From positions 780 to 64,779 of the forward strand of contig CAWBMK010000007.1 of the NCBI GenBank assembly GCA_963789905.1: a stretch of DNA of 64,000 nt, in the 5' to 3' direction. Shown one piece after another: positions 6,006 to 39,626 of this stretch. Position 1 is the stretch's first letter. Each line of letters starts with the position of its first letter. A model generated the notes under the pieces. It ran no database searches, was not told the origin of the DNA, and saw nothing but the letters and a program-made list of their open reading frames with translations. A program made the position numbers and the translations under genes. The stretch is from an uncultured Chloroflexia bacterium. Lineage in GTDB: Bacteria; Chloroflexota; Limnocylindria; Limnocylindrales; CSP1-4.

Positions 6006-7553
6006 TCACGGGACGGCCGGCACCGACACTCTCCCAGCCTCGACGGCCGCGACGTAGGCGGCATGGTCCCGTTCGTTGACGGCCGCGTAGGTCTCGGCGA
6101 AGTCGGCGATCGCCCCGTCGAACCTGTCGCTCGTGCCGAGGTATGCGGAGATCGCGACTGCATCGCCCGTCACGGCGTGGGCCCGCGCGAGTGACCAACC
6201 GCAGATCCCGCCGTAGAAGCCAAGGCCGACCGGTTCGATCGTCGTGATGTCGACCGAGCCCTTCATGTCCCAGAGCTGTCGCAGGTAGAAGTCGCGGCCG
6301 CCCGGTCCCCGCGTCCAGCCGAGGAGGATGTCGGGGGTCGCCTGCATGCGCTGCTGTCCGACCACGACCCGCTCGGCATGGTTGGCATGCGCGCTCTGGT
6401 CGACAAAAGGCGCGAGGACCGACGCGGAGGCCTCCTTCGCCTGAAGGATGAGCGGGTCGTTCTCGTCACGCCCTAGGAGGACGAGCACGAAACAGCGCGT
6501 CCCGACACTGCCGACGCCGACGACCTTGAGAGCGAAGTCCACGAAGCGATACCGCTCCAGGAAGTCTCGCCGGTTCTCAGGCATCGTCGCGCGGTAGTCA
6601 CTGAAGACCTTCTCCAGGGCCTTTGGGCCGCCCATCCCTTCGAGGTCGACGTGGGTGATGACGGGCGGGTCGTCGAGGATGACCCGGCGTCCGTCCACGA
6701 CGGCCGTCAGCTTCTCGAAGGCGTGCATCCCGTCGCGCTGGCGGGCCTTGCTGAAGATGGCCTCGAGGTTCTTGCGGCGAGAGGCGCCCTCTCGGCCCTG
6801 GAGCCTTCCGGTCGCCTCGGCGGCCTCCCGGATCTCGGCCTCGGTGATCGAGGTGTACCAGACGGTCATGAGGCTCATCCCCGCGAAGCGGGCCATCCAT
6901 TGGCGATAGCTTCGGACCGTGGACATCGCTGCATCGCGGTTCTGGGCGACGCTGAAGCCACGCGCCCGGCCCGCGATGACGACGCTCGCGGCGAGCCGCT
7001 TGACATCCCACTCCCAGGGCCCGGGCAGCGTCTCATCGAAGTCATTGGCGTCGAAGACGAGCGTTCGCTCGGGTGAGGCGAACAGTCCGAAGTTGCTGAG
7101 GTGGGCGTCACCACTGGCCTGGACGAGGATGTCCGTGCGGGGCGTGGTCCCGAGGTCGAACGCCATCACGGCTGGGGTCCCGCGGTAGTAGGCGAACGCC
7201 GACTCAGCCATCCGCTCGTGGCGGACGGGAACGAGGTCCTGGAGCCGGTCCTCCTCCTGGGCGGCCAGGATCGCGATCGGGTCGCGGCCGGGGGCGGGTT
7301 CGAAGGTGGCGTGGTCCACTCGCGGGACCCGCTTGCGGGCCGCCCTGCCCGCCGCGGACCGTTCACTCGGAGGGACCCAGGGTCGAGCCGTCCAGGTGGC
7401 GCCTTGGGCCGGGAGATCCGCCTGCCATGCGGCGTCGAACGCGGTCGGGGCCTCGTGGCCCGGAGTCGTTCTCTGCGACCGTCGCACCGGTTGTGCTGGT
7501 TCAGTCAATGGGGATGTCCTCGGATCAAAGCCGACAGGAAGAACCGGCTCCAT
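6006..7553 (-). CDS. DUF2252 family protein (start uncertain)
   Basis: RMAESAFAYYRGTPAVMA, GDAHLSNFG, FDANDFDETLPGPWEWDVKRL, KVVGVGSVGTRC, RDFYLRQLWDMKGS. Confidence 0.9.
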   Translation of the reverse strand: MEPVLPVGFDPRTSPLTEPAQPVRRSQRTTPGHEAPTAFDAAWQADLPAQGATWTARPWVPPSERSAAGRAARKRVPRVDHATFEPAPGRDPIAILAAQEEDRLQDLVPVRHERMAESAFAYYRGTPAVMAFDLGTTPRTDILVQASGDAHLSNFGLFASPERTLVFDANDFDETLPGPWEWDVKRLAASVVIAGRARGFSVAQNRDAAMSTVRSYRQWMARFAGMSLMTVWYTSITEAEIREAAEATGRLQGREGASRRKNLEAIFSKARQRDGMHAFEKLTAVVDGRRVILDDPPVITHVDLEGMGGPKALEKVFSDYRATMPENRRDFLERYRFVDFALKVVGVGSVGTRCFVLVLLGRDENDPLILQAKEASASVLAPFVDQSAHANHAERVVVGQQRMQATPDILLGWTRGPGGRDFYLRQLWDMKGSVDITTIEPVGLGFYGGICGWSLARAHAVTGDAVAISAYLGTSDRFDGAIADFAETYAAVNERDHAAYVAAVEAGRVSVPAVP

Positions 7554-7577
7554 TTCAGGGCTTCGCGACAGCCGGAG

Positions 7578-7598
7578 CATCCTCCCATTCGGAGGACA
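7578..7598. promoter_or_regulatory. Palindromic box type A, CATCCTCC-N5-GGAGGACA
   Basis: One of five copies of C(A/T)TCCTCC-N5-GGAGGA(T/A)G; in the divergent DUF2252/DUF1269 intergenic region. Confidence 0.65.
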
Positions 7599-7641
7599 CA
7601 CTCGATCTGGCCGATCGGCATGAGCGCTCCTTCGATGGCGC

Positions 7642-7662
7642 CTTCCTCCGAAGGGGAGGATG
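7642..7662. promoter_or_regulatory. Palindromic box type A, CTTCCTCC-GAAGG-GGAGGATG
   Basis: 19 bp identical to the box at 13805. Confidence 0.7.
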
Positions 7663-7827
7663 TAGCCGGCCCGTGACACGGGCTACGGTGCGAACGTCCG
7701 GGTGGCCTCGCAAGCGGTCGACGTGCCTGGACGGTCGTCGCAAGCGTTTCCACGCTTCCCTTGCGCACGAGAAACGGTCCGCCGCAGAGGGACCGATGCG
7801 TCGACCGCGAGGAGTTGAGGTATCGAT

Positions 7828-8472
7828 GTGACAGACCAACAGACGACCCCCGAGATGACATCGGCCACCGACGCCGACGACAGCGTCGTCGTCACGGGCC
7901 AGGTGGCGGACGAGCAAGGTGTGCTCGCCGAGGGCGCGATCGCTGCTCAAGGGCCCCATGCGCTCATCGTCGCCCGGTTCGCGGACCCGACCTTGGCGAT
8001 GAGCACATATGACGATCTCATCGACGCCGAGGTCGCGGGGTTCCTCGAGGTCGACGGCGTCCTCGTGGTCAAAGCGGACGAGAAAGGCCAACTCCACGTC
8101 CAGAAGATGACCGACCACAGCACGCGTACGGGCCTGAAGTGGGGCATCGTCGGTGGTGTCGTCGCGGCGGTCTTCCTGCCAGCCACGATCGTGGCGGGCG
8201 CGGTCGCGCTCGGCGTCGCCGGCGCGGCAGCCGGCAAGGCGCGCAACCTCTATCACCGGGTCGAGGTCGAGCAGGAGCTCGCCGGCGTCATCACGCCGGG
8301 CACCTCCGGGATCCTCGCGCTCGTCTCTGCGATGGATGCGGACGCCGTCGCGCAGAAGATGCCCGAGGCCGAGCAGGTCAAGACGGTCCCGGTCGACGAG
8401 GAAACCGCGGGGGCGATCAAGGCGGCCGCGACCGCGGCTGCGTCGCACGACGCGCCCGCGATCCCAGTCTGA
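7828..8472 (+). CDS. DUF1269-like membrane protein
   Basis: DGVLVVKADEKGQLHV, GLKWGIVGGVVAAVF glycine-rich helices, PGTSGILAL. Confidence 0.8.
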   Translation: MTDQQTTPEMTSATDADDSVVVTGQVADEQGVLAEGAIAAQGPHALIVARFADPTLAMSTYDDLIDAEVAGFLEVDGVLVVKADEKGQLHVQKMTDHSTRTGLKWGIVGGVVAAVFLPATIVAGAVALGVAGAAAGKARNLYHRVEVEQELAGVITPGTSGILALVSAMDADAVAQKMPEAEQVKTVPVDEETAGAIKAAATAAASHDAPAIPV

Positions 8473-8550
8473 GTCCGCGGTGGGTAGGACCCGTTCGGCG
8501 TGCGACCGGCGCTGGACATCGGGGAGCAGGGTCGAAGGAGACACAGGGAC

Positions 8551-9552
8551 ATGGCAGACAAGCACGTGACCGGCCCGATCCAGGTGTTCGTGGTCGGGTT
8601 CGACAAGTTCGAGGCGACCGGCCGGATCATGGCCGAGCTGCGCCGGGCGCGGAAGCGCGGCGTGATCCGCCTCGTGGACGTCATCTTCGTCCAGAAGGAC
8701 CGGCACGGCGACATCGAGAACTCGATGCACCTGACCGACCTGTCCGAGGATGAGCGGATGCGTCTCGGCGCGATCGCCGGCGGGCTCATCGGACTTCATG
8801 CGGGTGGTGTCGAGGGCATGGCCGAAGGGGCCGAGCTAGGCGCCCTCGCCGTCGCCGAGCGCGACGCCGGCCTGTCGGTGGACCGCATGCAGGAGCTCGC
8901 CGACTCGATCCCCTCCGGCAGCGCCGCGGCGATCCTCGTCATCGAGCATCACTGGGCGGCGAGCCTCCGCGACGCGATCGTGGATGCCGGCGGTCGAACG
9001 CTCATGCAGGCGATGATCGCGCCCGACGCCCTCGCCATCGTGGGTGACGAGCTGCGCGTCAAGATGGAAGCCGAGGACGCCATCGAGGCGGCCGAGGAGA
9101 TCAAGCTGGCCGCCGCTATGGAGATCGCCCAGACACTTGTCGAGGCCGAGCTCATCGAGGACGCGGCCATCGCCGAGGCAGCCGATGTCGTGGCCACGGC
9201 GCTCGCGGTCGAGGATGCCGCTGCCGAGGACGTCATCGACACGCTGTTCGCCGCCTCGCTCATCGAGGAGGCGGCCAAGGAAGAGGCCGAGAACGTCGTC
9301 CGGATGTCGCTCGACGTCGAGGAGGCAGCGACCGAGGAGGCCGAGGAGGCCGTAGTCGCGGCCGACGAGATCGAGGCCGCTGCGGCTCTTCGCGCGGTTC
9401 GTGCGCTCATAGAGGCGGACCTCATCGAGCGGGAGGCCGCCCAGGAGGCGGTCGACGCCCTCGTCGCGGCCGACATGATCGAACAGGAAGCCGCGGACGA
9501 GGCCCTCGCGTCGGTGCTCGCCGCCGAGGAGGTCGCAGCCGGCGTGAGCTGA
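8551..9552 (+). CDS. DUF6325/DUF1269-like N-terminal domain fused to acidic Ala/Glu repeat tail
   Basis: AAGGAG RBS; GPIQVFVVGF, IRLVDVIFVQKD, IPSGSAAAILVIEHHWA; ~190-aa A/E/D-rich tail. Confidence 0.7.
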   Translation: MADKHVTGPIQVFVVGFDKFEATGRIMAELRRARKRGVIRLVDVIFVQKDRHGDIENSMHLTDLSEDERMRLGAIAGGLIGLHAGGVEGMAEGAELGALAVAERDAGLSVDRMQELADSIPSGSAAAILVIEHHWAASLRDAIVDAGGRTLMQAMIAPDALAIVGDELRVKMEAEDAIEAAEEIKLAAAMEIAQTLVEAELIEDAAIAEAADVVATALAVEDAAAEDVIDTLFAASLIEEAAKEEAENVVRMSLDVEEAATEEAEEAVVAADEIEAAAALRAVRALIEADLIEREAAQEAVDALVAADMIEQEAADEALASVLAAEEVAAGVS

Positions 9553-9610
9553 GTACCAACGCATCCGGGATCGCTGGGTCAACCAATGTCAACGAAGGGA
9601 GATTCCTCAG

Positions 9611-10234
9611 ATGAGTGATGAGACGAAGAACACGCCGGCAGCGCCGGATCAGCCGATCGATGCCGCCGTGGCCACCGTCAGTGACGACCTCGGCGTCGAA
9701 GCCGTGGCCGGGATCGCCGTCCAGGGCAACCAGGCGCTCATCGTGGCGCAGTTCGCCGACATGGACTCCGCGAAGGCGGCCTACAACGCGTTGGTCGACG
9801 CCGAGGTCAACCGGGCGCTCGACATCGACGGCGTCCTGGTTGCGAACGCGGACTACCAGGGCAAGATCCACATCCAGAAGATGACCGACCATAAGACCCG
9901 CAACGGCTTCCTGTGGGGCGCCGTCGGCGGCGCCGTCATCGGCCTGATCTTCCCGCCGACCATCCTCGCCGGCGCAGTCGGCGTCGGCATCGCGGGTGCG
10001 GCCGTCGGCAAGGCCGGCAACGTGCTCATGAAGAGCGACGTGGCCGACGAGCTCGCCGGCGTCATCACCCCGGGCACGTCGGGCATCGTGGCGCTCGTGT
10101 CCATCACAGCGGTCGACGCCGTGGAGGCGACGATCCCGGACGCCAAGGTGGTCAAGTCCGCTCCGGTCAGCGACGAGGCCGCCGCTGCAGTCAAGCAGGC
10201 TGCGAAGGCCGGAGGCGACCAGGCGGCCGGCTGA
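9611..10234 (+). CDS. DUF1269-like membrane protein
   Basis: Paralogue of 7828 (KMTDHKTRNGFLWG, VITPGTSGIVAL). Confidence 0.8.
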   Translation: MSDETKNTPAAPDQPIDAAVATVSDDLGVEAVAGIAVQGNQALIVAQFADMDSAKAAYNALVDAEVNRALDIDGVLVANADYQGKIHIQKMTDHKTRNGFLWGAVGGAVIGLIFPPTILAGAVGVGIAGAAVGKAGNVLMKSDVADELAGVITPGTSGIVALVSITAVDAVEATIPDAKVVKSAPVSDEAAAAVKQAAKAGGDQAAG

Positions 10235-10489: not shown

Positions 10490-10990
10490 TTAGATGGCTG
10501 GGCAAGTAGTCGCGAGCGCGGACTCGACAGCTGAAGCTGCCGTCTTGATCTGCTCGATCGCCGCCTTCACCGCGACAAGCTTTGCGCCGAGGCTCGGCTG
10601 ATCGCCGAGTCCGGTCAGCGTGGTCTGGAGTGCCTGGACGGAGCTCAGCAGATCGCCGACCGGCTGGCCGACAAGCTCGTGCCCCGACACGGCGAGGGCC
10701 TGAGCGGCCGACTGTACGTCGGTGAGCGCCGCCGTCACGCCGCTCACACCGACGGTGGCGAGCGTGATATCGGTGAGCGCGGTCACGGAGGCGCGGAATC
10801 GCGCCGCGTCCGCGCACATCGCGGCCGCGCCCGACGCGGTCGGAGCTGCCGAAACGATCGGAGCTGCCGACGTCGGCGCCGTGGCCGGGGCTGTCGGCGT
10901 GCCCGGTGTCGGCGACGAGGAAGCCGCGCAAGCGGCGACGGCGAGCGTCAAGAAGAGCACGGGGGCGAGGAGGCGAAAGTCTCTGGGCAT
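10490..10990 (-). CDS. Putative lipoprotein with Pro/Thr/Ala linker and helical domain
   Basis: Signal peptide with lipobox LAVAAC; PTPGTPTAPATAPT linker. Confidence 0.7.
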   Translation of the reverse strand: MPRDFRLLAPVLFLTLAVAACAASSSPTPGTPTAPATAPTSAAPIVSAAPTASGAAAMCADAARFRASVTALTDITLATVGVSGVTAALTDVQSAAQALAVSGHELVGQPVGDLLSSVQALQTTLTGLGDQPSLGAKLVAVKAAIEQIKTAASAVESALATTCPAI

Positions 10991-11290: not shown

Positions 11291-11311
11291 CATCCTCCCT
11301 GTCGGAGGAAG
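11291..11311. promoter_or_regulatory. Palindromic box type A, CATCCTCC-CTGTC-GGAGGAAG
   Basis: Between divergent lipoprotein and MalT-like regulator genes. Confidence 0.7.
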
Positions 11312-11456: not shown

Positions 11457-13915
11457 ATGCCCCCTTCCACTTCCCCTGTCGAGATCGAACCGATCGAGCT
11501 TGGAAGCCTCGCAAGCGGCGACAGCGCCGGCGGCCTGCTCGATCCTCTCCTCGAGGCGAGGCTCGTCATGCCGCGCCGGCCTGTCGGGACATTGCGCCGG
11601 ACGAGGCTGTTGCGCCAGATCCGGTCAACCCGACGACCTGTCATCTCGATGGTCGCGCCACCCGGCTACGGCAAGTCGAGCCTCCTCGTCCAGTGGGCGA
11701 CGGAAGACTCCGCGCCGGTCGCCTGGCTGACGGCCGACGAAAGTGATAGCGACCCGGTCGCGTTCCTGACCGATCTTGCGACGGCGGTCGACCGCTGCGT
11801 ACCGCTCGGTGCGGAGCTCTTCAGGGCGATCGCGGCGGTCACGGTGTCGCACCGGACCGTGGTCGGGCGATTGCTGGCAGCGATGTCCCGACCCCCGGAG
11901 CGGGTCCGGATCGCCATCGACGACGTGCACCGGATCACCTCACGGGCGAGCCTCGACATCCTTGCGGAGCTCGTCGAACACCTGCCCGAGGGGTCGCAGG
12001 TGGCCATCGCGGGACGCGCCCGGATGCGCCTCCCGTTCGCCCGCTGGCGCGCCGAGGGTTCACTGCTCGAGATCGGTCCCACGGAGCTGGCGATGGACGA
12101 GCGTGAGGCCGTCGGACTGGGACGCGAACTCGGGCTGCGGCTGCCGGCCGAAACCGCCACGCGCCTGACGCGAGAGACCGAAGGGTGGCCGGCTCTGCTG
12201 GCGCTCGCGATCCTGGGAGCCCGGACGTCTCGGGAGGGATCTCGATAGGAGCGACGCCGGCACTGACCACCTCATCGACGACTATCTGCGATCCGAGGTG
12301 CTCGAGCGCCGATCCACGGCCGAGATCACGTTCATGACCCGCACGTCGATCCTCGACCAGCTGCCCGCGCCGCTGTGCGATGTCGTGGCGGATCGACAAG
12401 GGTCGACCGATGTCCTGCGGCGACCTTGCAGGCTCGACTCTGCTGATGGACGACTACGGCGGGTCATACCGCTACCACACGCTCCTGCGCGACTTCCTCC
12501 AGCGGGAACTCGCGATCCGCGAGCCTGATCGGGTGACGGCCCTGCACGGGCGAGCCGCCGCGTGGTACCGGGCGAACCACGCCATCGAGCGTGCCGTCGA
12601 TCACGCCTTCGCGGCAGGGGACTCCGATCTCGTCGCCACGCTGGTCGGCAACGGCTTCGTCCAATTCCACTGGTCCGGCCACCGTGCGACGATCCGAGCA
12701 TGGGCCCGGCGTTTGGGTTTGGACGTTCTAAAGGCACACCCATGGCTGGCCGTGCTGGCAGCCTGGGAGGAGATCGCCGCGGGCGATGTCGCCGCTGCGA
12801 TGCGCTTCGCGGATGTAGCCGAGCGCGGAGCGTTCGAGGGAAGTCCGCCCGATGGCACGGCCTCATTCGAGTCAGGGAGGGCCATGCTCCGGGCCGGCAC
12901 GATCCGCCAGGGAGCCGAGGACGCGCTGGCGAACGCCACTCGAGCAGTCGAACTCGAAGGGGACCACGGCATGTGGCGCGGCTTCGCGCTATGGCAGATG
13001 GCCTTCGCCCGCCTCACGATCGGCGATGCGGCCGGCGCGGACGCGGCCTTGGCCGCCGCGGCCGTCGCGGCCCGATCATCGGGTGACGCCGCGATCTGGT
13101 ACTGCGTGCTCGGACACCGCGCTCTCGTGGCCGCCGAACAGGGGGCCTGGGATGCCGCGGCTGCCTCTATCGCGGAGAGCGATGCGATCACCCCGGCTCC
13201 GCAGATAGACGGGTATCTGTCGAGCGTTCCGTCTCGGGCGGTCCGCATCAAGCTGATGATCCATGGCGGCGACATCGCCGGTGCACGTCGCGAGCTCGCT
13301 CGAGCGACCAGCCTGCGACCACTCCTGACTGCCGCTGCGCCGGCTGGAGCGGTCCAGCTCCTTCTCGCGTTCGCCCGCGCCCATGTCGCGATCGACGACC
13401 CGGCCGGCGCACGCGCCCTCGTTGCCCAGGCGAACGACGTGATCCGCGATCGGCCCGATCTGGGCGTCCTCCCTGCCGAGGTGGACGCCTTCCAGGGGCT
13501 CCTGCACGCACGGGCGCCCGTGCGCGGCGGGGGCGCCACGAGCCTCTCGGTCGCCGAGCTCCGCGTCCTGTCATTCCTGCCGTATTACCTCTCGTTCAAG
13601 GAGATCGGGCAGCGCCTCGGCGTCAAGGAGACGACGATCAAGTCGCAAGCGCTTGCGATCTACCAGAAGCTGGGCGCGGCGACCCGCAGCGACGCTGTCG
13701 ACCTGGCCGTCGACGCCGGACTCCTCGAGCGCTTCTGGCCGGCCGAGGCGACCCCGCCGCGAACGAAGATCACCTTCCAGGGGCTGAATGCACGGGACCG
13801 AGCGTCTCCTCCGAAGGGGAGGATGCTCCCGCTGTCAGGAAGGGCCGAAATGGACGTGCGCTCGACCCTGGCAGCGGGCGTGAGGCCATGGCATTCAGTC
13901 CTCCCGTGCCGGTGA
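11457..13915 (+). CDS. MalT-like STAND ATPase/TPR/LuxR regulator 1, frameshifts ~12250 and ~12420; true stop probably near 13.8 kb
   Basis: Walker A APPGYGKS, IAIDDVHRI, TEGWPALL, YRYHTLLRDFL, C-terminal LSVAELRVLSFLPYYLSFKEIGQRLGVKETTIKSQ. Confidence 0.85.
13805..13825. promoter_or_regulatory. Palindromic box type A, TCTCCTCC-GAAGG-GGAGGATG
   Basis: Upstream of the MFS gene; near-identical to 7642. Confidence 0.65.
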
Positions 13916-14050: not shown

Positions 14051-15685
14051 ATGAATCGAAAGTCAGCCCTGATCGCACTCGCAGGCGCGCAGTTCGTGAT
14101 GGTCCTCGACCAGACGGTCATGGGGGTCTCGATCAGCCAGCTGGTGGCCGACTTCGACACGACCGTCACGACGATCCAGGCGATCATCACGCTGTACTGC
14201 CTTGTCATGGCGATGCTGATGCTCGCGGGCGGCAAGATCGGCGACATCATCGGGCGCCGTCGCGCCTTCAAGATCGGCCTCGTCATCTACGGCTGCGGCT
14301 CCGCCATGACGGCGCTCGCCCCGACGGTGGCGATCCTCACCCTCGGCTGGTCGATCCTCGAGGGCATCGGCGCCTCCCTCGTGCTGCCCGCGATGGTCGC
14401 CCTGATCGCCGGCAACTTCGAGGGCAAGGACCGCAAGGTCGCCTACGCAGTCATCGGGGGCGTCGCCGGCGCCGGGATCGCGGTCGGTCCGATCCTCGGG
14501 GGCTGGGCGACCACGGTGCTCAGCTGGCGGGTCGTCTTCGCTGGCGAGGTCGTCCTCGTGATCGGGATCTTCGCCATGACCCGGTTCGTCGCGGACGCCC
14601 TCCGGAGCGGCCCGAAGCCCCGGCTCGACATCGTCGGTGCTGTCCTGTCGGCCACCGGTCTCGGGCTGATCGTCCTGGGGACCCTCCAATCCAGTGTCTG
14701 GGGCCTGATCCAGCCGAAGGACGCGCCGGTCGAGCCCTTCGGCCTTGCTCCGACCCTCTTCGTGATCGCCGCCGGCGGGGTCCTGTTGTGGGCGTTCGTG
14801 GGCTGGCAGCGGCACCGCGAGGCGATCGGGAGCGACCCGCTGGTCCACCTCGACCTGCTCAAGATCCTCCCGCTCCGATCGGGCCTCGTCGGCCTCTTCA
14901 CGCAGAACCTTCTGCTGATGGGCGTCTTCTTCACCATCCCCCTCTATCTCCAGCTCGTCCTCGGCCTCGACGCCCTCCAGACGGGCCTCAAGATGCTGCC
15001 GGTCTCGATCGCGATGTTCGCTGCGTCCGCCGCTGGGTCGCGACTTTCGACCCGCTACTCCGTGCGTTCGATCACGAGGACTGGGCTCATCCTCTCCGGC
15101 ATCGCGTGCGTCATGCTGCTGGCGACAATCAAGCCCGATCTCGCCGATCTCGCCTTCGCTGCGTCGATGGGCGTGCTGGGTGCCGGGATGGGGCTGATGG
15201 CGTCGCAGCTCGGCCTCGTGGTCCAGTCGTCGGTCGACGCCTCGGGTCGCGGCGAGGCCGGCGGGCTGCAGTTCACCGGGCAGCAGCTGGGCTCGTCTCT
15301 CGGGGTCGCCCTCATCGGCGCGATCGTCCTTGCCGGGCTGACGACCACCTTCGTCTCGAGCATCCAGGCGGACTCCCGCATCAGCGAGGAGGTCGCGGCA
15401 CAGGTCGGGACCGAGGTGAGCTCCGGGATCGACTTCGTCTCGTCTGCGGCCGTCGAGGCGGCCGCTCAGAAGGCCGGGCTCGACGCGGCCACCACGGCGG
15501 CGATCGTCGACGACTACGAGCAGGCCCAGCTCCGGTCGCTGAAGGCCGGCCTTCTGGCGGCGGCGCTCCTGGCCCTCGTCTCGCTCGCGTTCACCGGCGG
15601 CCTGCCGGGGAAAGTGCCGATAAGCACGGCAGCGCCTGGCGAAGACGCGGCCGCCCCCGACACGGTCGCGCCGGCAGCGGCATAG
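14051..15685 (+). CDS. MFS transporter, DHA2/EmrB-like 14-TMS
   Basis: AQFVMVLDQT, GGKIGDIIGRRR, GIAVGPILGGW. Confidence 0.9.
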   Translation: MNRKSALIALAGAQFVMVLDQTVMGVSISQLVADFDTTVTTIQAIITLYCLVMAMLMLAGGKIGDIIGRRRAFKIGLVIYGCGSAMTALAPTVAILTLGWSILEGIGASLVLPAMVALIAGNFEGKDRKVAYAVIGGVAGAGIAVGPILGGWATTVLSWRVVFAGEVVLVIGIFAMTRFVADALRSGPKPRLDIVGAVLSATGLGLIVLGTLQSSVWGLIQPKDAPVEPFGLAPTLFVIAAGGVLLWAFVGWQRHREAIGSDPLVHLDLLKILPLRSGLVGLFTQNLLLMGVFFTIPLYLQLVLGLDALQTGLKMLPVSIAMFAASAAGSRLSTRYSVRSITRTGLILSGIACVMLLATIKPDLADLAFAASMGVLGAGMGLMASQLGLVVQSSVDASGRGEAGGLQFTGQQLGSSLGVALIGAIVLAGLTTTFVSSIQADSRISEEVAAQVGTEVSSGIDFVSSAAVEAAAQKAGLDAATTAAIVDDYEQAQLRSLKAGLLAAALLALVSLAFTGGLPGKVPISTAAPGEDAAAPDTVAPAAA

Positions 15686-15763: not shown

Positions 15764-15795
15764 GGATGATCGGTCTTCATCCGTCAAGGAGGATG
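15764..15795. promoter_or_regulatory. Overlapping boxes GGATGA-N7-TCATCC (15764-15782) and CTTCATCC-N5-GGAGGATG (15775-15795)
   Basis: ~100 bp upstream of a DUF1269-like gene. Confidence 0.6.
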
Positions 15796-15894: not shown

Positions 15895-16422
15895 ATGCTC
15901 CGACAGTTGGTCCTGGCGATCTTCGCCGACGAGGCGTCCGCGGACGCTGCGGCCGATGGGCTCAACCGGTGGGCGGAACAGGAAGCCGCGGCCAAGATGC
16001 TCGATACGCAACAGATCCAGGCGATGGGCGTCCTCGTACTCGACGAGAACGGCAAACTCAAGACCGAGAAGCTCGGCCCGCGAAGCATCGGGTTAGGCGT
16101 CGGGATCGGAGTCATCCTCGCGATGCTCACCCCGGTGGGCATGGCAGTCGGGATCATCGGCGGCGGGATCCTTGGCGCTCTCCACCACAGGAGCCTGTTC
16201 ATCTCCAAGGACGATCGAGAGCGCCTCGGTCGCGAGCTGCAGGGGGGCAAGGCCGCGCTCGGGGTGATGACCGACAAGATCAGCGCGCCGGCCATCTCCG
16301 CCGAGCTCGCCGCCCTCGGCGGTCGAGCCGAGACCCATGAGCTCGACGACAGCGCTGTCGCTGAGCTCGACGCCGCTTTAGGGGCGGCTCCGGCCGACGC
16401 GTCCGCGAACACGACCGCATGA
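15895..16422 (+). CDS. DUF1269-like membrane protein
   Basis: AAGGGAG RBS; LVLAIFADEASA, MGVLVLDENGKLK, LQGGKAALGV. Confidence 0.7.
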   Translation: MLRQLVLAIFADEASADAAADGLNRWAEQEAAAKMLDTQQIQAMGVLVLDENGKLKTEKLGPRSIGLGVGIGVILAMLTPVGMAVGIIGGGILGALHHRSLFISKDDRERLGRELQGGKAALGVMTDKISAPAISAELAALGGRAETHELDDSAVAELDAALGAAPADASANTTA

Positions 16423-16477
16423 CGGGTTCGCCGCGGTTCGATACCCAAGATCGGCCGCGAAACGTAGATTCGCACTG

Positions 16478-17171
16478 ATGGAGCCCGACCGACGCCCCGA
16501 TGAGACCGTGGCCGACCAGCCTATCGGGCGATCGGTGCGCGACCGTCGCACGTCGCGAGCCGCCGATGTCCTTCCCCTCGACCGGTTCAACGCGTTCACC
16601 GACGGCGTCTTTGCGATCGCGATCACGCTGCTCGTGCTCGAGCTCTCGGTCCCGGCTGTCGGCGGTCGCCTCTTGCCGGCGCTCGGTGAGCAGTGGCAGG
16701 AGTTCCTCGGCTACCTGATCAGCTTCGTGTTCATCGGCGGGATCTGGGTCAGCCACGCCGGGATGACGAAGCTGATGCGGCACGCCGACACCCTGGCGTA
16801 CGGGATCGACCTGCTGATGCTGCTGTTCGTCGGCGTCCTCCCGTTCTCGACCAACCTGATGGTCACCCATCTGTCGGGTCCGGACGTGGAGGCCGCGGTC
16901 ATCATCTACGGGGTCAACGTGCTCCTGGCGTCGCTCTGCCTGAGCCTGCTGATGTTCTACATCGCCAGCGAGCGGTCGCTCGTCATCGACGGGGTCGCCG
17001 ACGAGACCCTGGAGGGCGAAGGTCCGTCAGCGGTGGATCGTGATCGCCCTGAATGTCGCTGCGATCGCGCTTGCCGTCGTCGCACCGATCGCTGCCGTCG
17101 GGGTGTATCTGGTCATGACGTTCCTCGCGCTCGCCCTGCCGCTGATCCACCTTCGTCGGCGCCGGCACTAG
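16478..17171 (+). CDS. TMEM175 (DUF1211) family potassium channel, frameshift ~17015
   Basis: RFNAFTDGVFAIAITLLVLEL signature; YLISFVFIGGIWVSH. Confidence 0.85.
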
Positions 17172-17352
17172 GACTCCCCGGTCGGCGTGAACGGCCCGCC
17201 CGGCACGCTGTCTGGCCCCAGGCCGCGTGTCCCTGGAGCGAGTGGGTCGATTTGGCCTTGAGGAGGAAGTTGGCCGCCGGTTCGTTCAGGGAGAGGATCC
17301 GGGTCATCCGCTCAGCGCACCGGCCGGGTGGTGACACGCAGGAGAAATCGAC

Positions 17353-18051
17353 ATGGGGATGGACGCAAACCAGGACGACGTGACGACGGACGAGCCGGCG
17401 TTCGCCACCCCGGTGCTCGGTGAGTCGCGCTGGCCGATGGCGATCGCAGTCCTCGTCCTTATGACCGCCGCCCTCATCGCCCCGCCACGGCTGACCATCC
17501 TGCCCGGCTGGCTCCTCGCGGCGACCGAGGGTCTCCTGCTCCTCGCGCTCATCGTCGAGGATCCCGGCCGCATCGACCGGACCGGGCCGTGGCAGCGGCG
17601 AACGTCGATCGCGCTCGTGGTCGTGATCCTCGCCAGCACCCTCGGAGCCACGGCGCTCCTCATCTACGACCTCATGACCGGATCGCCACTGACGAGTCAG
17701 GCCGACCAGCTCCTGCTCGCCGGGGCGAAGGTCTGGCTCGGCAACAACATCGCCTTCGCGTTCCTCTACTGGGAGTTCGACGCCGGCGGGCCGGCCGTCC
17801 GCGCCCACGGGATGCCCCGCTATCCCGACCTCGCGTTCCCCCAGCAGCTCAACCCGGAGTTGGCGCCGCCTGATTGGCGGCCCCAGTTCATCGACTACCT
17901 CTACGTGGGCTTCACGACCGCCAACGCCTTCAGCCCGACGGACACGATGCCGATGGTCCACTGGACCAAGGTGGCGATGGGCACGCAGGCGCTCATCTCC
18001 TTCGTCGTGGTCGGCCTCGTCCTCGCCCGCGCCGTCAACGTCTTCACGTGA
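17353..18051 (+). CDS. DUF1345-like membrane protein
   Basis: FAFLYWEFDAGGP, DLAFPQQ, FIDYLYVGFTTANAFSPTD. Confidence 0.75.
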   Translation: MGMDANQDDVTTDEPAFATPVLGESRWPMAIAVLVLMTAALIAPPRLTILPGWLLAATEGLLLLALIVEDPGRIDRTGPWQRRTSIALVVVILASTLGATALLIYDLMTGSPLTSQADQLLLAGAKVWLGNNIAFAFLYWEFDAGGPAVRAHGMPRYPDLAFPQQLNPELAPPDWRPQFIDYLYVGFTTANAFSPTDTMPMVHWTKVAMGTQALISFVVVGLVLARAVNVFT

Positions 18052-23763: not shown

Positions 23764-23822
23764 CGAAGCGTCCGATCCGACAGGATGAGCGGTCGTCACC
23801 CGATCCGGCCGATTCGGCCAGC
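23764..23822. promoter_or_regulatory. 59-bp upstream element type B containing GGATGA-N7-TCACCC
   Basis: 55/59 identical to 30257-30315; same offset from a minus-strand start. Confidence 0.75.
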
Positions 23823-24842: not shown

Positions 24843-24875
24843 GGATGAGCGTGCGTCGTCCGATCCGACCAATTC
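24843..24875. promoter_or_regulatory. Degenerate type B element GGATGA-N7-TCGTCC-GATCCG
   Basis: GGATG 66 bp upstream of the DUF1269 start, similar to the 58 and 62 bp offsets of the other copies. Confidence 0.55.
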
Positions 24876-25238: not shown

Positions 25239-27903
25239 CTAGCGACCCGATCGCGCCGACGGTCCGAGCAGCCCCAGCTCGCGCGCGCGGTCCACCGCCT
25301 CGGTGCGCCGATGCGCGTCCAGCTTCTCGTAGATGTGGCGCATGTGGGTCTTGACGGTGCTCGTCGAGACGTAGAGCTGGCCGGCGATCTCGCCCGCGGA
25401 CAGGTTGCTCGGCAGGAAGCGGAGCACTCGGAGCTCGCTCTCACTGAGCGGCTCGGGCGGCGTCGCGGGCTCGCGGCGACGTGGCTGGGAGCGACGACCC
25501 GCCGAGGACGCTGAGGAGGTCGGCCAGCAGGGCGGCGTGCGCCGTGCGGTGCCGCGGATGCCGCTCGAGGAGGTCCCGTGCCGGCACCACGACGAACGGG
25601 AAGACGAGCGAGTCGGGTTCGGCGATGTCGAGGCCGCGCTCGATATCGCGCTCGGCCGTCACGCGGTCGCCGAGCTGGTCGCGCGCGACCGCATCGCAGC
25701 ATCAGCGCCTGGATCACGGTCCCGGCGCGGACGACCGGTGCCGTCCCGTCGAGCACCGGCGCGAGTGCTTCGATGGCCGCCCCGTGGTCGCCCTCGGCGA
25801 GTCGAAGCGCGGCGAGGGCCGTCCGCGCCTCACCGAACTCGTGGTCCCGGTCGGTCAGGCTGGCGACCGTGGCCCGTGCGCCGGTCACGTCGCCCATCCG
25901 CAGCTGCGTCTGCGCGATCGACACCCTGGCCGGGCCGGTCAGCGCGTGCGAGGTGGCCAGCACGTCCTGGAGCCGCTCGGCGGCCCGGAACTCGCCGAGT
26001 GCCTCCCCGAACCGGCCCTCGCCGGCATGCAGCTCGCCGCGCACGAAGTGCACGAGCAGGGCCGTGGCGGGGTCGAGCTCCGCCCGGATCGAGTGCTCGG
26101 CTCGGTCGAGCCAGCGGCGTCCCTCCTCGAACCGGCCCTGCGCCGCGTCGGCCGAGGCCATCGTCGCCAATGCGGTGCAGGCGATCGGGTCGGTCGCCCA
26201 GCCGTGCGCCTCGGCGATCGCGATCGCCTCGCAGGCATCGTTGCCGTGCCTGCGCGAGCGAGCGTCGGGCGGCGCCAAGCCCGAGGTGCGAGAGACAGCC
26301 GATCTGGACGTAGGGCCGGTCGATCAGCCGCGCGAGCGCCAGGCCCTGCTCCAGGTGTCGCTCGGCGTCGTCCAGCCGGAACGACCAGAGCTCGACGATG
26401 CCGAGGTTCATCAACGCGACCGCCCTCGCGTCGTTGCTCAGCGTCAGCTCGGTCACCGAGTCCGCCTCGACGGGTTCGAGCAGCGGACCCACCTCGCGGA
26501 GCGCCGACTCGAGATCACCGCGCCGGCGGGCGAGCTCCAGCCGGACGACCGCGAGCATGACCGCGAACTGATGCTGCCGTTCGGCGACGACCTCCGAAGC
26601 ATGTCGCTCGGCCAGCGCGATGTATGCGGCCGCCGTCTCGAGGGAGTGCTGCGTCAGCTCGACGTAGGCGAGGAGCGCGGCCAGCTCGGGATGCGACAGC
26701 GCATCGGCGGGGAAGGCCGCGAGCAGGGCGCCGATGGTCGCGACCTGACCGTCGAGCGAGAGGCTGAGACCATGGTCGGCGAGCAGACGCCCCGCGTGCT
26801 TCCAGTCGCCGGCGGCCTGGGCGTGACGGATCGCGTCGACGGCGTGCCCATGCTCGGCGAGCCAGTCGGCGGCGACCCGGTGCAGGTCCCCGATGGCATC
26901 GGGTTCGCTGCGCCGAAGCTCGAGGAGCAGGAGATCCGCGAACAGCGGGTGGTAGCGGAACCACGACCGCTCAGGGTCGACCGAAACGACGAACGCGTTC
27001 GAGTCCTCCAGCTCGAGGAGCATCCGCTCCGAGCCGCTCGCTCCGGTGAGGCGGTCGGCGAGCGGGCCGCAGACCCGCTCCAGGATCGAGGTGCGGAGCA
27101 GGAGCTGCCTGACCTCTTCGGGCTGGCGCTCGAGGACCTCGGCGAGCAGGTAGTCCGCCACCGTCCGCTCGCTGCCGGCGAACTCGGCGACGAACCGCTC
27201 GGGGTCCGGGTGACCGGCGAGCGACATCGTGGCGAGCCGCAGGCCCGCGGCCCACCCCTCGGTCCGTGCCAGGAGCATGGCGGCGGCCTCGGCGGACAGC
27301 TCGACCCCGGAGGCATCGAGCAGTTGCCGCGCCTCCTCGGCCGACAGCCGGAGGTCGACGGCACGGAGCTCGGTCAGCTCGCCAGCCAGGCGCAGGCGAT
27401 GGAGTCCCAGGGAGGGGTCATGGCGGGTGGCCAGGACCACGTACAGCAACCGTGGCCGCCGCGCGAGCAGGAGCTCCAACTGCGCCTGCGCATCCGGCGA
27501 GACCAGCTCATGCAGATCGTCGATCACGAGCACGACGGGCTCATCGAGCGCCTCGAGCTCCGAGATGAGGCGCCGCACCAACCCTTCGCCGTCGAACTCC
27601 GGCGTCGGCGCGAGCTTCTGCGACGAGCCCATCCCTGCCGACCGCGGAGCGCAGCCGCTCGACGACCGACAGCCAGAAGCGCTGGGCGTCGCGTTCGTGG
27701 CGCTCCACCAGCACCCAGGCCGTTCGTGCGCGGAGGCCCGCCTCATCGATCCACGAGCGAAGCAGCACCGTCTTCCCGCTGCCGGGCGGCGCCGAGACGA
27801 GCGTTACTCCAGCGGAGACTCCGGCAGACAGGCGCGCGTACAGAGCTCCTCGTGCCACGACGCCAGGGGCGCGGACGGCGACCGTCTCCTCGGGACCGCC
27901 CAT
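25239..27903 (-). CDS. MalT-like STAND ATPase/TPR/LuxR regulator 2, about four frameshifts
   Basis: APPGSGKT, LVIDDLHEL, RTEGWAAGLRLA, WFRYHPLFADLL, LSESELRVLRFLPSNLSAGEIAGQLYVSTSTVKTH. Confidence 0.85.
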
Positions 27904-30256: not shown

Positions 30257-30315
30257 CGAAGCGTCCGATCCGCCGGGATGAGCGGTCGTCCCACGATCCG
30301 GCCGATTCGGCCAGC
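30257..30315. promoter_or_regulatory. 59-bp upstream element type B
   Basis: 55/59 identical to 23764-23822. Confidence 0.75.
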
Positions 30316-35627: not shown

Positions 35628-35878
35628 GGTCAGCTCCTCCTCCGAGTCCCTCACGCGGGCGCCGCGTGTCAGCCCGCGAATCAGTCTAACGGCGTGCCCG
35701 AGGTCGGACCGACTCAATGCTCGCCATCGACGGTGAGCGTATTCAGGTCAGGCGGAGCGTCGGCGACGCGTACCATCGCTTCCCACCCCGTCGATCTCGG
35801 ATCCCCGCTCGATGGGGCCGAGGGTGTCAACTCGTTCAGGGTTCCGGGAACGGATCTTCGTAGCTTCGGAGTCACCTC

Positions 35879-36139: not shown

Positions 36140-36143
36140 GGCG

Positions 36144-37646: not shown

Positions 37647-37692
37647 GAACTGGAGCGGTCCCGGCTGTCCGCGTCTGGCTTGACGGCGGCGA

Positions 37693-38928
37693 TCAGCCGC
37701 AGAAGGCGCGCGCGGCTGCCAGAAGGGCGCGGGCGCAGGCGACTGTGCTGGGAAGGTCCACCCACTCGATGTCGGCATGGGCGCCCTCGCCGATCGGACC
37801 GAAGAGCACTGTGGGAATCCCGGCCGCGGAGATGAACGCGGAGTCCGCCCAGTAGCTCACCCCGCCGAGCGCGGCGGGCCGGCCCAACGTGTTGGCGGCT
37901 GCTGCGGCGACGGCCTCAACGATCTCACTGTCGTGCGCTGTCTCGAATGGATCCCGGGCGAGCGTTGTCCGGCTGGTCACGACCAGCTCCGGATCGGCGA
38001 TCCGGCAGTCCGCAAGGAGAGCCTCGATGTCCCGTTCGACGTCCGCCGCCGTCTCCCCCGGCAGGGTTCGCCGCTCGATCGTCAGCTCGCAGCGGGCGGG
38101 GATGCTCGACTCCTCGATGCCGCCCGCCACGAGAGACGCGTGCAGCGAGCCCGAGTCGAGGGTCGGGTGCTCCTTGGCTCGGAGCTTCCGATCCAGCTTG
38201 TCGAGGGCCACGAGGATCGGCCCCGTCTTCAGGATGGCGTCGACGCCGAGGTGAGGGCGGGAGCCGTGCGCTGCCTTACCGACGACCGAGATCTCGGTCC
38301 ACACGAATCCCTTGTGCCCGGTGGCGATGGTGAGCTCGGTCGGTTCGGTCACGATCGCGGCATCGGCGCTGACGTGACGCAGCACCTCCTGCACCCCGAT
38401 GCTGGAGTGCTCCTCGTCGGCGACCGCGGCGACCAGGACCTCACCGGGCAGGTCAGCGGCGGCGGCATCGCGACAGGCGATCAGGGCAGCAGCCAGGCCG
38501 CCTTTCATGTCGTACACGCCGCGCCCGTACATCCTGTCGCCGTCGATGCGGGGGCGTAGCGGGTCTGCCATCGCCCCAAGCCCGACCGTGTCCAGGTGCC
38601 CGCAGAGCAGAAGGGATCTCCCGCTCCGGGTAGCGGCCGGCCGGCTGCGGACGAGGACGCTGGGGCGACCTGACGTCGCCTCCAGGACCTGAGCCCCGAG
38701 CCCGGCGTCCGTCGCCCAGTCGACGACAAACCTGGCCAGCTCACCTTCGCCGGCTGCGCCGGGCGACAGCGACGGGTTGACCGAGTCGATGGCCGCGAGC
38801 TCGCCGAGCAGATCGACGACCCCGGCGTCCGAGCTCAAGGTTCCTCCGATTGCGGACCGCTCCGCGGATTCTGCCTTAGGTGGTGCGCTGGTACGATTCG
38901 CGTTGCCGCATTGATCGTCGTTGTGCAT
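37693..38928 (-). CDS. M20 family deacylase (ArgE/DapE-like)
   Basis: LCGHLDTV, GRGVYDMKGG, VADEEH, IVTEPT, GEGAHADIE. Confidence 0.9.
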   Translation of the reverse strand: MHNDDQCGNANRTSAPPKAESAERSAIGGTLSSDAGVVDLLGELAAIDSVNPSLSPGAAGEGELARFVVDWATDAGLGAQVLEATSGRPSVLVRSRPAATRSGRSLLLCGHLDTVGLGAMADPLRPRIDGDRMYGRGVYDMKGGLAAALIACRDAAAADLPGEVLVAAVADEEHSSIGVQEVLRHVSADAAIVTEPTELTIATGHKGFVWTEISVVGKAAHGSRPHLGVDAILKTGPILVALDKLDRKLRAKEHPTLDSGSLHASLVAGGIEESSIPARCELTIERRTLPGETAADVERDIEALLADCRIADPELVVTSRTTLARDPFETAHDSEIVEAVAAAAANTLGRPAALGGVSYWADSAFISAAGIPTVLFGPIGEGAHADIEWVDLPSTVACARALLAAARAFCG

Positions 38929-39002
38929 CGCCTCCTCCTTCGAGCGATCGCGACGCGCCGGGTCGGCACCATGATCGGGGGCATCGTCACGGAGGTTCCA
39001 GA

Positions 39003-39626
39003 ATGACGGACGACACAACCACGCCTCACAATGGCTCGGGCGACGTCGCGGTCGTGACCGCCACGCTCGCCGACGACCAGGGGGTCATAGCCGAAGCTGC
39101 GGTCGCGGTCGAGGGAGATCACGCCCTGATCGTTGCCCGCTTCGCCGACATGTCGTCGGCGCGCTCGATCTACGATGGACTGCTCGACGCCGAGCTCGAA
39201 GGCTCGCTTCACATCGACGGTGTGCTGGTCGTCAACGCCGATGATGAGGGCAAGCTCCACGTCCAGAAGATGACCGACCACAGCACCCGGACCGGTCTCA
39301 AGTGGGGCATCGTCGGTGGCGTCATCGCCGGTGTGTTCCTGCCGGTGACGATCGTTGCCGGTGCCGTGGGCCTTGGGATCGCCGGGGCGGCCGCCGGAAA
39401 GGCCCGCAATCTCTCCCATCGCTTGGACGTCGAGAAGGAACTGGCCGATGTGATCACTCCGGGCACATCCGGGATCCTGGCTCTGGTCACCGCGGCCGAC
39501 GCGCCGGCCGTTGCGGCCAAGATGCCCGATGCAGCCGAGGTCAAGACGATCCCCGTCGACGCGGCCACGGCGGGCGAGATCAAGGAAGTCGCCGGTGAGG
39601 CGGCAGCGGCTCCGTCCGAGGGCTGA
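39003..39626 (+). CDS. DUF1269-like membrane protein (close paralogue of 7828)
   Basis: KLHVQKMTDHSTRTGLKWGIVGG shared. Confidence 0.8.
   Translation: MTDDTTTPHNGSGDVAVVTATLADDQGVIAEAAVAVEGDHALIVARFADMSSARSIYDGLLDAELEGSLHIDGVLVVNADDEGKLHVQKMTDHSTRTGLKWGIVGGVIAGVFLPVTIVAGAVGLGIAGAAAGKARNLSHRLDVEKELADVITPGTSGILALVTAADAPAVAAKMPDAAEVKTIPVDAATAGEIKEVAGEAAAAPSEG

Follow-up and report, generated by a model that had tools for sequence, protein, structure and literature searches.

We analyzed a window of 64,000 nucleotides from an uncultured Chloroflexia bacterium. Judging from its sequence, there are probably two local regulons in it, and a separate MalT-family (LAL/STAND-LuxR) activator would run each of them. 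The original prediction had proposed a single regulon over 6006-39626; instead, we found two modules that differ in both regulator and boxes and that occur apart from each other in relatives. Module 1 (6.0-18.05 kb) contains five copies of TCCTCC-N5-GGAGGA(TG), four exact and one near, with the regulator LAL1 in its middle. Module 2 (21.7-30.4 kb) contains three copies of CGGATCG..GA-N6-CTCATCC, located before DUF308, DUF1269, and AI-2E/LPG-synthase-TM, and the second regulator, LAL2, lies among them. At 18.2-21.7 kb and at 30.6-39.6 kb, motif and PWM scans of the window detected neither box type. Systems of this kind are already known, and no new mechanism is revealed.

Genes and boxes of the two modules

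Pfam scans agree with nearly all the gene families and positions of the original prediction; the label "DUF6325-like" was not confirmed by these scans. DUF1269 matches were found at 7828, 8500/8551, 9611, 15889/15895, 23953-24777 (minus strand), and 38880/39003. In module 1, DUF2252a (6006..7508, minus strand) encodes a kinase-like protein of 500 aa (Pfam DUF2252, E 1.7e-133). Its start, read from the sequence, is a TTG at 7508 with the Shine-Dalgarno (SD) sequence GAGGA ahead, and its orthologues show 88-95% identity across the related loci L001-L011. The DUF1269 trio (7828..10234, plus strand; genes at 7828-8472, 8551-9552, and 9611-10234) was recognized by Pfam and synteny, and sequence motifs indicate a glycine zipper within the soluble domain of every member. 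A lipoprotein of 166 aa with the lipobox LAVAAC, identified from sequence (10490..10990, minus strand), has no Pfam or NCBIfam match and belongs to no known family; it is kept in relatives with 69-90% identity. The DHA2-type MFS transporter (544 aa; 14051..15685, plus strand; Pfam MFS_1) matches the NCBIfam efflux_EmrB subfamily with E 3.2e-48, below the cutoff. A putative operon (15895..18051, plus strand; Pfam) comprises DUF1269 (15895-16422), a TMEM175-type K+ channel (16478-17383), and DUF1345 (17353-18051), the last with a weak Pfam match of 26 bits, below the cutoff.

TCCTCC-N5-GGAGGA is the most recurrent inverted repeat with 6-bp arms in the window (4 exact copies vs 0.02 expected), and a PWM scan of the 64 kb gave just five LAL1-type sites, all within 7.5-15.8 kb. 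The box TCCTCCGAATGGGAGGA (7580..7596, minus strand, 38.8 bits) faces DUF2252a, with a -10-like TGAAAT at 7557-7552, and occupies the same place in 14 loci. Those facing the DUF1269 trio (7644..7660, plus strand, 38.4 bits; -10-like TACGGT at 7684-7689) and the lipoprotein gene (11293..11309, minus strand, 37.2 bits; -10-like TAGCGT at 11270-11265) are each kept in 13 loci. The box facing the MFS gene (13807..13823, plus strand, 38.7 bits; -10-like CGAAAT at 13846-13851) falls inside the 3'-terminal portion of LAL1, and relatives use this promoter type for MFS or other cargo. A weaker box, TCATCC-N5-GGAGGA (15777..15793, plus strand, 23.9 bits; -10-like TACTCT at 15818-15823), faces the fourth DUF1269 gene. 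All five aim at a regulon gene on their own strand, with 22-24 nt from the box to the -10-like hexamer downstream, and the arrangement box-TG-N20-(TACGGT / TAGCGT / TGAAAT / TACTCT) is common to independent promoter classes.

Because the -10-like hexamer lies 22-24 nt past the motif, the predicted start sites would be about 35-37 nt from it, and the TG together with this hexamer would place the repeat centre near -44. We propose that a dimer of the LuxR-type HTH domains of LAL1 binds this 17-bp inverted repeat, whose half-site is the MalT core GGA(G/T)GA, and that the repeat substitutes for the -35 element in a class II-type activation rather than in repression. Five LAL1 promoters would drive DUF2252a, the DUF1269 trio, the lipoprotein, MFS, and DUF1269-TMEM175-DUF1345. 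By analogy with MalT, a ligand may switch the ATPase domain to an oligomeric ATP form and so enable promoter binding.

In module 2, the gene for a DUF308/HdeD-like membrane protein (22998..23725, minus strand, ATG at 23725; Pfam) is preceded by the element CGGATCGGGTGA-N6-CTCATCC (23783..23807, minus strand), also present in the related loci L201 and L202. The fifth DUF1269 gene (23953..24777, minus strand, GTG at 24777; Pfam; 274 aa in relatives) has its element, found by motif search, at 24843..24867 (minus strand). A third copy (30276..30300, minus strand), differing from the IUPAC search pattern at 1 position, lies upstream of the AI-2E transporter gene (29096-30214, minus strand; Pfam), whose start/stop codons overlap with those of the LPG_synthase_TM-like gene (27978-29099, minus strand; Pfam). 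At up to 3 mismatches, the element has 6 matches in the window vs 1.0 expected, and 0/100 shuffles reach 6. The DUF1003 gene (21756..22235, plus strand; Pfam) belongs to module 2 in relatives; no box was found ahead of it in the window, and in L201 and L202 the element is kept upstream of DUF1003 as well as of DUF308, DUF1269, and LAL2. The LAL2 element contains several GGAT-containing sub-boxes, and its internal architecture is ambiguous. LAL2 would act via TCGGCC-GGATC-GGACGA-N6-CTCATCC, with GACGCT 23 nt after its first 17 nt, in front of DUF308, DUF1269, and AI-2E/LPG-synthase-TM. With low confidence, a role in homeostasis of ions, pH, or the membrane can be read from the cargo; the membrane-remodelling/osmotic role of the original prediction is conjectural.

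The stretch at 18.2-21.7 kb carries RibD_C, ArsR, AHSA1, and MBL genes. At 30.6-39.6 kb lie genes for an ABC transporter, CMD, MIP (34968-35717, minus strand; Pfam), a second DUF2252 (DUF2252b; 36144-37646, plus strand; Pfam), M20, and a sixth DUF1269, and a sulfatase remnant (35879-36139; weak Pfam match).

The regulators LAL1 and LAL2

Both regulators belong to the MalT/STAND-LuxR family, as had been predicted, according to profile and PDB matches and the GerE HTH. LAL1 (11457..13915, plus strand; Pfam and MalT homology) consists of a STAND ATPase, a putative TPR-like sensor, and a LuxR HTH, and LAL2 (25239..27746, minus strand; Pfam) has its HTH at 25266-25448. Their Walker A motifs are PPGYGKS and PPGSGKT, respectively. 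LAL1 homology was scored on the intact orthologue from L006, which matches NCBIfam MalT (E 3.9e-63, residues 50-567) and the MalT structure PDB 8BOB (E 1.6e-27). The GerE match of LAL1 reaches 26.5-27.2 bits, over the Pfam cutoff of 23.5; its AAA_16 and AAA_22 matches, taken alone, are below their cutoffs, and TPR_MalT gives 18 bits vs a cutoff of 45. The LAL2 orthologues (841-886 aa) carry WHD_MalT, TPR_MalT, and GerE (PF00196), the first two being precomputed annotations. We rejected LAL1 as an orthologue of MalT, the E. coli maltose activator: its 214 bits fall well short of the MalT equivalog cutoff of 537, which makes it a MalT paralogue and not MalT itself, and no maltodextrin (mal) genes were found in the window or related loci.

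1-nt insertions near 12245 and 12422 spread LAL1 over three reading frames, and LAL2 contains four 1-nt insertions (25486, 25696, 26232, and 27622). If both were true pseudogenes, the regulons would be defunct here and the boxes would be relics. These insertions are window-specific, and indels are also present in the genes for TMEM175 (1-nt insertion near 17016), DUF308 (1-nt deletion near 23546), and the fifth DUF1269 (frameshifts near 24198 and 24614); LAL1 is split in L001, L010, and L021 too. In L002, L006-L009, L048, and L057, it is one uninterrupted ORF, 776-915 aa long from stop to stop. However, the housekeeping gene gltB likewise has its N-terminus in another frame, an ABC ATPase gene in the window is split as well, and the window comes from a long-read MAG lineage. 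A CTGCGA/TCGCAG context is common to 3/4 LAL2 insertions and therefore indicates a systematic base-calling error, and 4/5 module 1 boxes are perfect. Decay of the two regulons appears unlikely to us, and the frameshifts in LAL1 and LAL2 are probably assembly errors.

Conservation of the boxes and alternative readings

The association of boxes, regulators, and DUF1269/DUF2252 cargo described in the original prediction recurs across genomes in related loci. Across 1.58 Mb of these loci, exact matches to TCCTCC-N5-GGAGGA number 43 and are concentrated where LAL1-module genes occur; the arms are near-invariant and the spacer varies. In the genome loci, the majority of sites with high scores aim at a regulon gene on the same strand (DUF2252a, 14; DUF1269_1, 13; lipoprotein, 13; MFS, 4), orthologous loci being non-independent observations in all these conservation counts; the main exceptions in orientation face other cargo. 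Both elements keep their position in related Chloroflexota MAGs despite shuffled gene order.

The boxes could also be operators of another factor with its gene elsewhere, such as a response regulator of the NarL/LuxR type, with the LALs as bystanders. In L003-L005, boxes are present without LAL1 within +/-10 kb, and none of the LAL1 boxes points at LAL1 itself. In most loci, however, the boxes are tightly co-localised with LAL1 or LAL2, and a different box type accompanies each of the LAL paralogues. The half-site is identical to the MalT box core, and in Actinoplanes the homologous arrangement is genetically proven (PMC7567727). A separate factor strikes us as quite improbable, and we favor LAL1 and LAL2 as the candidate box-binding proteins.

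At the RNA level, UCCUCC/GGAGGA could pair as a GC-rich 6-bp stem holding an SD-like sequence, and the palindromes might be hairpins (GGAGGA/anti-SD sequestration or terminators) rather than DNA operators. This is highly improbable, since the palindromes lie upstream of the predicted -10 boxes, 66-270 nt from start codons, and are followed by no T-run. Moreover, arm variants are one-sided: TCATCC, TCGTCC, and TACTCC are never compensated on the opposite arm and equal other GGANGA half-sites. The true SD sites stand apart from the palindromes.

The recurrent GGAGGA/GGATGA boxes of the original prediction are real, built from the MalT core, and located before genes for DUF1269, DUF2252, and membrane proteins. 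Rather than isolated hexamers, however, they form composite elements. In the island, 18/64 hexamers are intergenic vs 9.8 expected. Ten belong to the five palindromes (8 intergenic; the pair at 13807, in the 3' tail of the LAL1 ORF, lies outside intergenic DNA), 3 to the second composite element, and 2 are SD sites. Chance hexamers or ordinary SD sequences in a GC-rich genome deserve hardly any credence as an explanation: bare GGAKGA is not enriched window-wide (107 vs 106.5 expected, the shuffled expectation) and the two intergenic SD sites are of this kind, but the composite motifs are far above chance and position-conserved across genomes, which refutes this reading for them.

Comparison with known systems

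In LuxR/TraR class II activation at lux and tra boxes, a LuxR-type HTH sits as a dimer on a palindrome centred in the low -40s and replaces the -35 element. Streptomyces has LAL-family pathway regulators, which are large LuxR proteins that bind ATP. The window system differs from these in sensing domains and ligands, and its cargo is not related to quorum sensing or antibiotic biosynthesis. E. coli MalT is homologous to LAL1 over the NOD-arm region, and its activator site overlaps the -35 region, as predicted for the window boxes; however, the mal promoters contain asymmetric 10-mer repeats, whereas the window boxes are paired 6-5-6 inverted repeats. The E. coli MalT box core is GGA(T/G)GA (quoted in PMC7567727).

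In Actinoplanes sp. SE50/110, MalT (ACSP50_3915) activates 40/51 genes via TCATCC-5nt-GGATGA (Droste et al. 2020, PMC7567727). [quoted passage not shown] Its cargo includes three DUF1269 genes, AI-2E, DUF308, MFS, SHOCT, and a dipeptidase, to which relatives add DUF2252 and ppk2 (PMC7567727). Like the window, the MRLGR has two MalT-like LuxR regulators inside the island and a 6-5-6 palindrome with GGANGA half-sites upstream of island genes, and its boxes travel with the genes while gene order shuffles between genomes. The measured motif-to-start distance of ~34 nt compares with the predicted 35-37 nt here. Shared cargo comprises DUF1269 copies, AI-2E, DUF308, MFS, M20-type dipeptidase, SHOCT, and, in relatives, DUF2252 and PPK2, compared by family name/annotation, not sequence, with Tables S3 and S4 of PMC7567727 plus the cargo of relatives. 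The window is from Chloroflexota, and Actinoplanes belongs to Actinomycetota; the half-site is GGAGGA for LAL1, with a distinct composite element for LAL2, and GGATGA in Actinoplanes. The single block also contrasts with two small separated modules (5 + 3 promoters), and the glucosidase, amylase, and arginine-deiminase genes of the MRLGR are absent from the window system.

Its match to this experimentally shown regulon makes the window a new example of a known, functionally unexplained system. It is quite possible, and we propose it tentatively, that islands of a LAL and 6-5-6 boxes form a widespread, horizontally shuffled stress module of Actinomycetota and Chloroflexota, in which paralogous regulators diverged and which controls an uncharacterised ion/pH/membrane homeostasis response in soil bacteria. 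Its cargo may include DUF1269, AI-2E, DUF308, LPG-synthase-TM, DUF2252, PPK2, and SHOCT. The recognition helix (TIKSQALAIYQKL vs TVKTHMRHIYEKL) and the boxes (GGAGGA, GGATGA, GGGTGA, and GGATC/GGACGA) may have diverged among the paralogous regulators, which, if true, would insulate adjacent sub-regulons from one another. These variants provide a natural series for the DNA specificity of MalT-type HTHs. A shared regulator type links DUF1269, DUF2252, DUF308, DUF1003, DUF1345, AI-2E, TMEM175, and LPG-synthase-TM-like genes across phyla and gives a handle on families without known function; the Actinoplanes inducer and malT-mutant phenotype could be carried over to each of these families as hypotheses to test.

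A further counterpart was found in the actinomycete Nonomuraea gerenzanensis (L205; NZ_LT559118.1, 8.09-8.13 Mb, an unannotated record), with two adjacent LALs, three DUF1269 homologues (<=42% identity), and AI-2E. This locus contains six TCAYCC-N5-GGRTGA boxes vs 0.00 expected, with the half-site GG(G/A)TGA; TG comes next (TT in one), and a -10-like hexamer lies 23 nt downstream, as spaced in the window. The range of the regulon, defined by experiment in one actinomycete family, now also takes in uncultured soil Chloroflexota and Nonomuraea.

Two MalT-type regulators in an assembly with many 1-nt indels

Genes were called by codon statistics and Pfam, and the gene content that had been predicted was borne out nearly item by item. 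The window encodes two DUF2252 and six DUF1269 proteins, members of the MFS, TMEM175, DUF1003, DUF308/HdeD, LPG_synthase_TM, AI-2E and MIP families and a sulfatase fragment, while the Pfam match to DUF1345 is weak. Both regulators, LAL1 (11457-13915, + strand) and LAL2 (25239-27746, - strand), are real MalT relatives, as originally proposed. The intact LAL1 orthologue of comparison locus L006 matches the NCBIfam MalT model (E 3.9e-63, 214 bits, under the equivalog cutoff of 537) and the MalT structure 8BOB (E 1.6e-27). The GerE HTH of this orthologue lies above the Pfam cutoff. LAL2 orthologues (841-886 aa) are named “LuxR family maltose regulon positive regulatory proteins.” The two regulators share 28% identity in the NOD and 51% in the HTH, and their recognition helices are unlike (TIKSQALAIYQKL in LAL1, TVKTHMRHIYEKL in LAL2).

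The GC content of the window is 65-73%. An actinobacterial origin, which the value of 69% had suggested, was rejected because the relatives are Chloroflexota MAGs: a search with the first DUF2252 protein against a single genome from each species recovered 80 loci, nearly all from soil Chloroflexota MAGs, most of them Microflora Danica bins with the label “uncultured Chloroflexia” and a small number Limnocylindrales. The flanking sequence is unremarkable chromosome, encoding PEP carboxylase, a GAF histidine kinase together with an OmpR-type regulator, glutamate synthase and AmtB, among others.

The window assembly contains many 1-nt indels. Comparison with several relatives revealed private 1-nt insertions in LAL1 (12245 and 12422), LAL2 (25486, 25696, 26232 and 27622), the fifth DUF1269 gene (24198) and TMEM175 (17016). 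In the related loci L002, L006-L009, L048 and L057, one uninterrupted reading frame of 776-915 aa (stop to stop) encodes LAL1. Even the housekeeping gene gltB is split over two frames, its N-terminus lying in the other frame (5' region 49393-49900). Three of the four LAL2 insertions have a CTGCGA/TCGCAG context. The insertions thus resemble systematic errors of long-read sequencing, perhaps linked to a methylation motif, more than decay of the genes. Because the private indels are numerous and the gltB frame is also broken, we take the disrupted LAL1 and LAL2 genes as probable assembly errors. Another indel probably splits an ABC-transporter ATPase (30605-31625) into two frames, with ABC_tran at 30605-31387 and the C-terminal part at 31014-31625. 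Separately, an 86-codon sulfatase N-terminal fragment (35879-36139) ends 4 nt ahead of the start codon of the second DUF2252 gene, DUF2252b (36144); a deletion or rearrangement may have left this scar ahead of DUF2252b.

An oriented palindrome at the predicted promoters around LAL1

The original prediction described recurrent boxes built from GGAGGA/GGATGA. As bare hexamers these are at chance frequency, GGA(G/T)GA occurring 107 times window-wide against 106.5 expected; what stood was a composite form, as the list of hexamer matches contains convergent pairs at a fixed spacing. The palindrome TCCTCC-N5-GGAGGA is present in four exact copies compared to 0.02 expected in the window, with a fifth copy carrying one mismatch. 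All five lie within 7.5-15.8 kb, in the module around LAL1 (module 1, 6.0-18.05 kb), and a PWM built from all instances found only these five sites in 64 kb, low thresholds included. It is also the most recurrent inverted repeat with 6-bp arms in the window, and our search for such repeats found no other recurrent ones there.

The palindrome occupies equivalent positions in the orthologous loci L001-L011 and is also found in the more distant L021, L026, L048 and L057. Its arms are nearly invariant and its spacers variable among these relatives. DUF2252 paralogue loci that lack module 1 also lack the motif, rare isolated matches excepted. The arm variants that do occur are one-sided, never compensated, and equal other GGANGA half-sites, which favours a protein-binding site over an RNA hairpin. 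In locus L064, a LAL1 paralogue (53-57% identity) lies amid 6-5-6 palindromes of the GGAGGA and GGATGA types (4663, 6872, 9739 and 11386), so both half-site variants occur in one locus.

The motif is oriented. In the direction of the gene it reads TCCTCCGAnnGGGAGGA-TG(C/T), followed 20 bases later by TACGGT, TAGCGT, (T/C)GAAAT or TACTCT. All five window boxes and the majority of high-scoring sites in the genome loci face a gene on the same strand: DUF2252a in 14 cases, the first DUF1269 gene in 13, a lipoprotein gene in 13, an MFS gene in 4 and others in 8. At the DUF2252a promoter (- strand), the box (7596-7580) is followed by TGAAAT (7557-7552), the Shine-Dalgarno sequence GAGGA and a TTG start at 7508 for a 500-aa product. 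With a -10 hexamer starting 24 nt past the box, the box centre would lie near -44 and transcription would start about 35-37 nt past the box. A sigma-70 consensus scan of 7400-18400 detected no promoters, which is partly a limit of the tool and fits with activator-dependent promoters.

In relatives, LAL1-box promoters also precede an LPG_synthase_TM-like gene (L001, 276-1475), PPK2 and P-type cation ATPase genes (L008, 1066-2160; L010, 1799-5205), a PLDc_N-SHOCT gene (L004, 9091-9474; also L005), and genes for a DUF6264-like membrane protein and a 634-aa protein without known family (L003, 789-3229; also L005-L007 and L057). A metagenome scan with the box as query (17 specified bases) gave 8 genuine loci among the 120 listed, all from the same Chloroflexota module, and no new regulon members among these matches.

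Downstream of the promoters, the leaders of the first DUF1269 gene and the lipoprotein gene have a paralogous segment of some 60 nt in common (7690-7760, + strand; 11264-11200, - strand), containing the blocks CGTCC..TGG, GTCGACGTG and GTCGCAA. This segment is kept in most relatives and is missing where the leader is short (L004, L005, L009 and L021). A structured leader RNA was rejected, as RNAalifold gave no consensus structure for this stretch. Rfam gave no matches in the window or in unrelated metagenome loci. An unrelated conserved sequence, TCCTCCGAnnGGGAGGATGCAGGTCAACTGGCG.GCGCCGGAATTATCGGCCAC, is found repeatedly in metagenome contigs with a GC content near 60% (L081, L082, L086, L092, L098, L109, L138, L163, L174 and L187); it has no Rfam match, is probably coding and has no connection to the LAL finding. 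Exact-protein look-ups of the window MFS protein and its Streptomyces scabiei homologue returned no matches.

The LAL2 element and the extent of the two proposed regulons

Three intact LAL2 orthologue contexts (L201, L202 and L203) share DUF1003, LPG_synthase_TM, LAL2, a 274-aa DUF1269, DUF308 and AI-2E, the same set that surrounds LAL2 in the window (module 2, 21.7-30.4 kb). The upstream regions of genes in these contexts have in common the element GAATCGG-CCGGATCG(G/T)(A/G)(C/T)GA-N6-CTCATCC, then GGACGCT. In the window, three copies on the - strand (23783-23807, 24843-24867 and 30276-30300) precede the starts of DUF308, the fifth DUF1269 gene and AI-2E, respectively, by 57-65 nt. Allowing up to three mismatches, the pattern gave 6 matches compared to 1.0 expected, a number reached in none of 100 shuffles. 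In L201, it is also found upstream of DUF1003 and of LAL2 itself. The start and stop of the AI-2E and LPG-synthase-like genes overlap, so the two probably form one operon. The first 17 nt of the element (TCGGCC-GGATC-GGACGA) form a degenerate 6-5-6 arrangement with GACGCT 23 nt further on, a geometry equal to that of module 1, and CTCATCC reads on the reverse strand as GGATGAG, the MalT core.

Neither box type was found by PWM and pattern scans at 18.2-21.7 kb (RibD_C, ArsR-AHSA1 and MBL genes) or at 30.6-39.6 kb (ABC transporter, CMD, membrane protein, MIP, sulfatase remnant, DUF2252b, M20 peptidase and the sixth DUF1269). Low-threshold scans of 18-40 kb likewise detected no weak LAL1-type sites and no LAL2-type sites past the three. 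Since the relatives examined do not carry modules 1 and 2 side by side, the “island” consists of two independent units plus unlinked genes. Together with the box-free stretches, this speaks against the single regulon that had been drawn over 6006-39626. Co-occurrence across genomes was supported: the LAL1 palindrome and module genes recur in relatives, as do LAL2, DUF1269, DUF308 and AI-2E in L201-L203. The original prediction is right in its main idea and too broad in extent.

Proposed mechanism and relation to known systems

Most likely, each LAL would bind its own boxes at about -44 through LuxR-type HTH dimers and recruit RNA polymerase to promoters lacking a -35 element; ligand-driven oligomerisation of the STAND ATPase would gate this activity, as in MalT. 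Regarding the cargo, DUF1269 proteins carry a glycine zipper inside a soluble domain with, according to a preprint, a ferredoxin fold like that of CutA1 and NikR, and DUF2252 has been described as a member of the protein-kinase clan with swapped lobes. Other cargo includes TMEM175-type K+ channels, a P-type cation ATPase, AI-2E, HdeD-like DUF308, PPK2 and MFS transporters. Because of this set, a role in ion, pH or membrane homeostasis may tentatively be suggested.

In Actinoplanes sp. SE50/110, the MalT-like LuxR regulator ACSP50_3915, which adjoins a second LAL (ACSP50_3917), activates 40 of the 51 genes ACSP50_3900-3950 (PMC7567727). The palindrome 5'-TCATCC-5nt-GGATGA-3' overlaps the -35 region at 17 mapped start sites, its 3' end lying 34.4 +/- 1.0 nt from the start, and was tied to the E. 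coli MalT box GGGGA(T/G)GAGG (Droste et al., 2020; PMC7567727). The cargo tables list SHOCT, three DUF1269, AI-2E, two MFS, DUF308 and a beta-Ala-His dipeptidase; relatives additionally have DUF2252 and ppk2, and gene order is shuffled between genera (PMC7567727). The controlled set includes no maltose genes, and no function was assigned to it (PMC7567727); our literature search found no later work on this region.

The Nonomuraea gerenzanensis locus (L205, NZ_LT559118.1) is an actinomycete counterpart with another half-site variant. Two LALs lie next to each other there, accompanied by three DUF1269 homologues, AI-2E and six TCAYCC-N5-GGRTGA boxes (19508, 28758, 30091, 35218, 35247 and 37548; 0.00 expected). 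After every box comes TG (TT in one case), and a -10-like hexamer follows at a distance of 23 nt. A Streptomyces sp. NBC_01136 plasmid (L204) shows part of the LAL2-type element in another phylum: around 14600, the partial copy GAATCGCCGGATTCGAGTGATGACC lies between a LAL2 homologue (45% identity) and the DUF308 gene downstream of it. No 6-5-6 box was found in L204, and IS elements surround the locus. The window system resembles the Actinoplanes regulon in regulator family, box architecture, inferred box position, cargo families and evolutionary behaviour. It is not new in kind: we take it as a further member of the MalT-type regulon known from Actinoplanes, one that adds a phylum and novel variants of the box.
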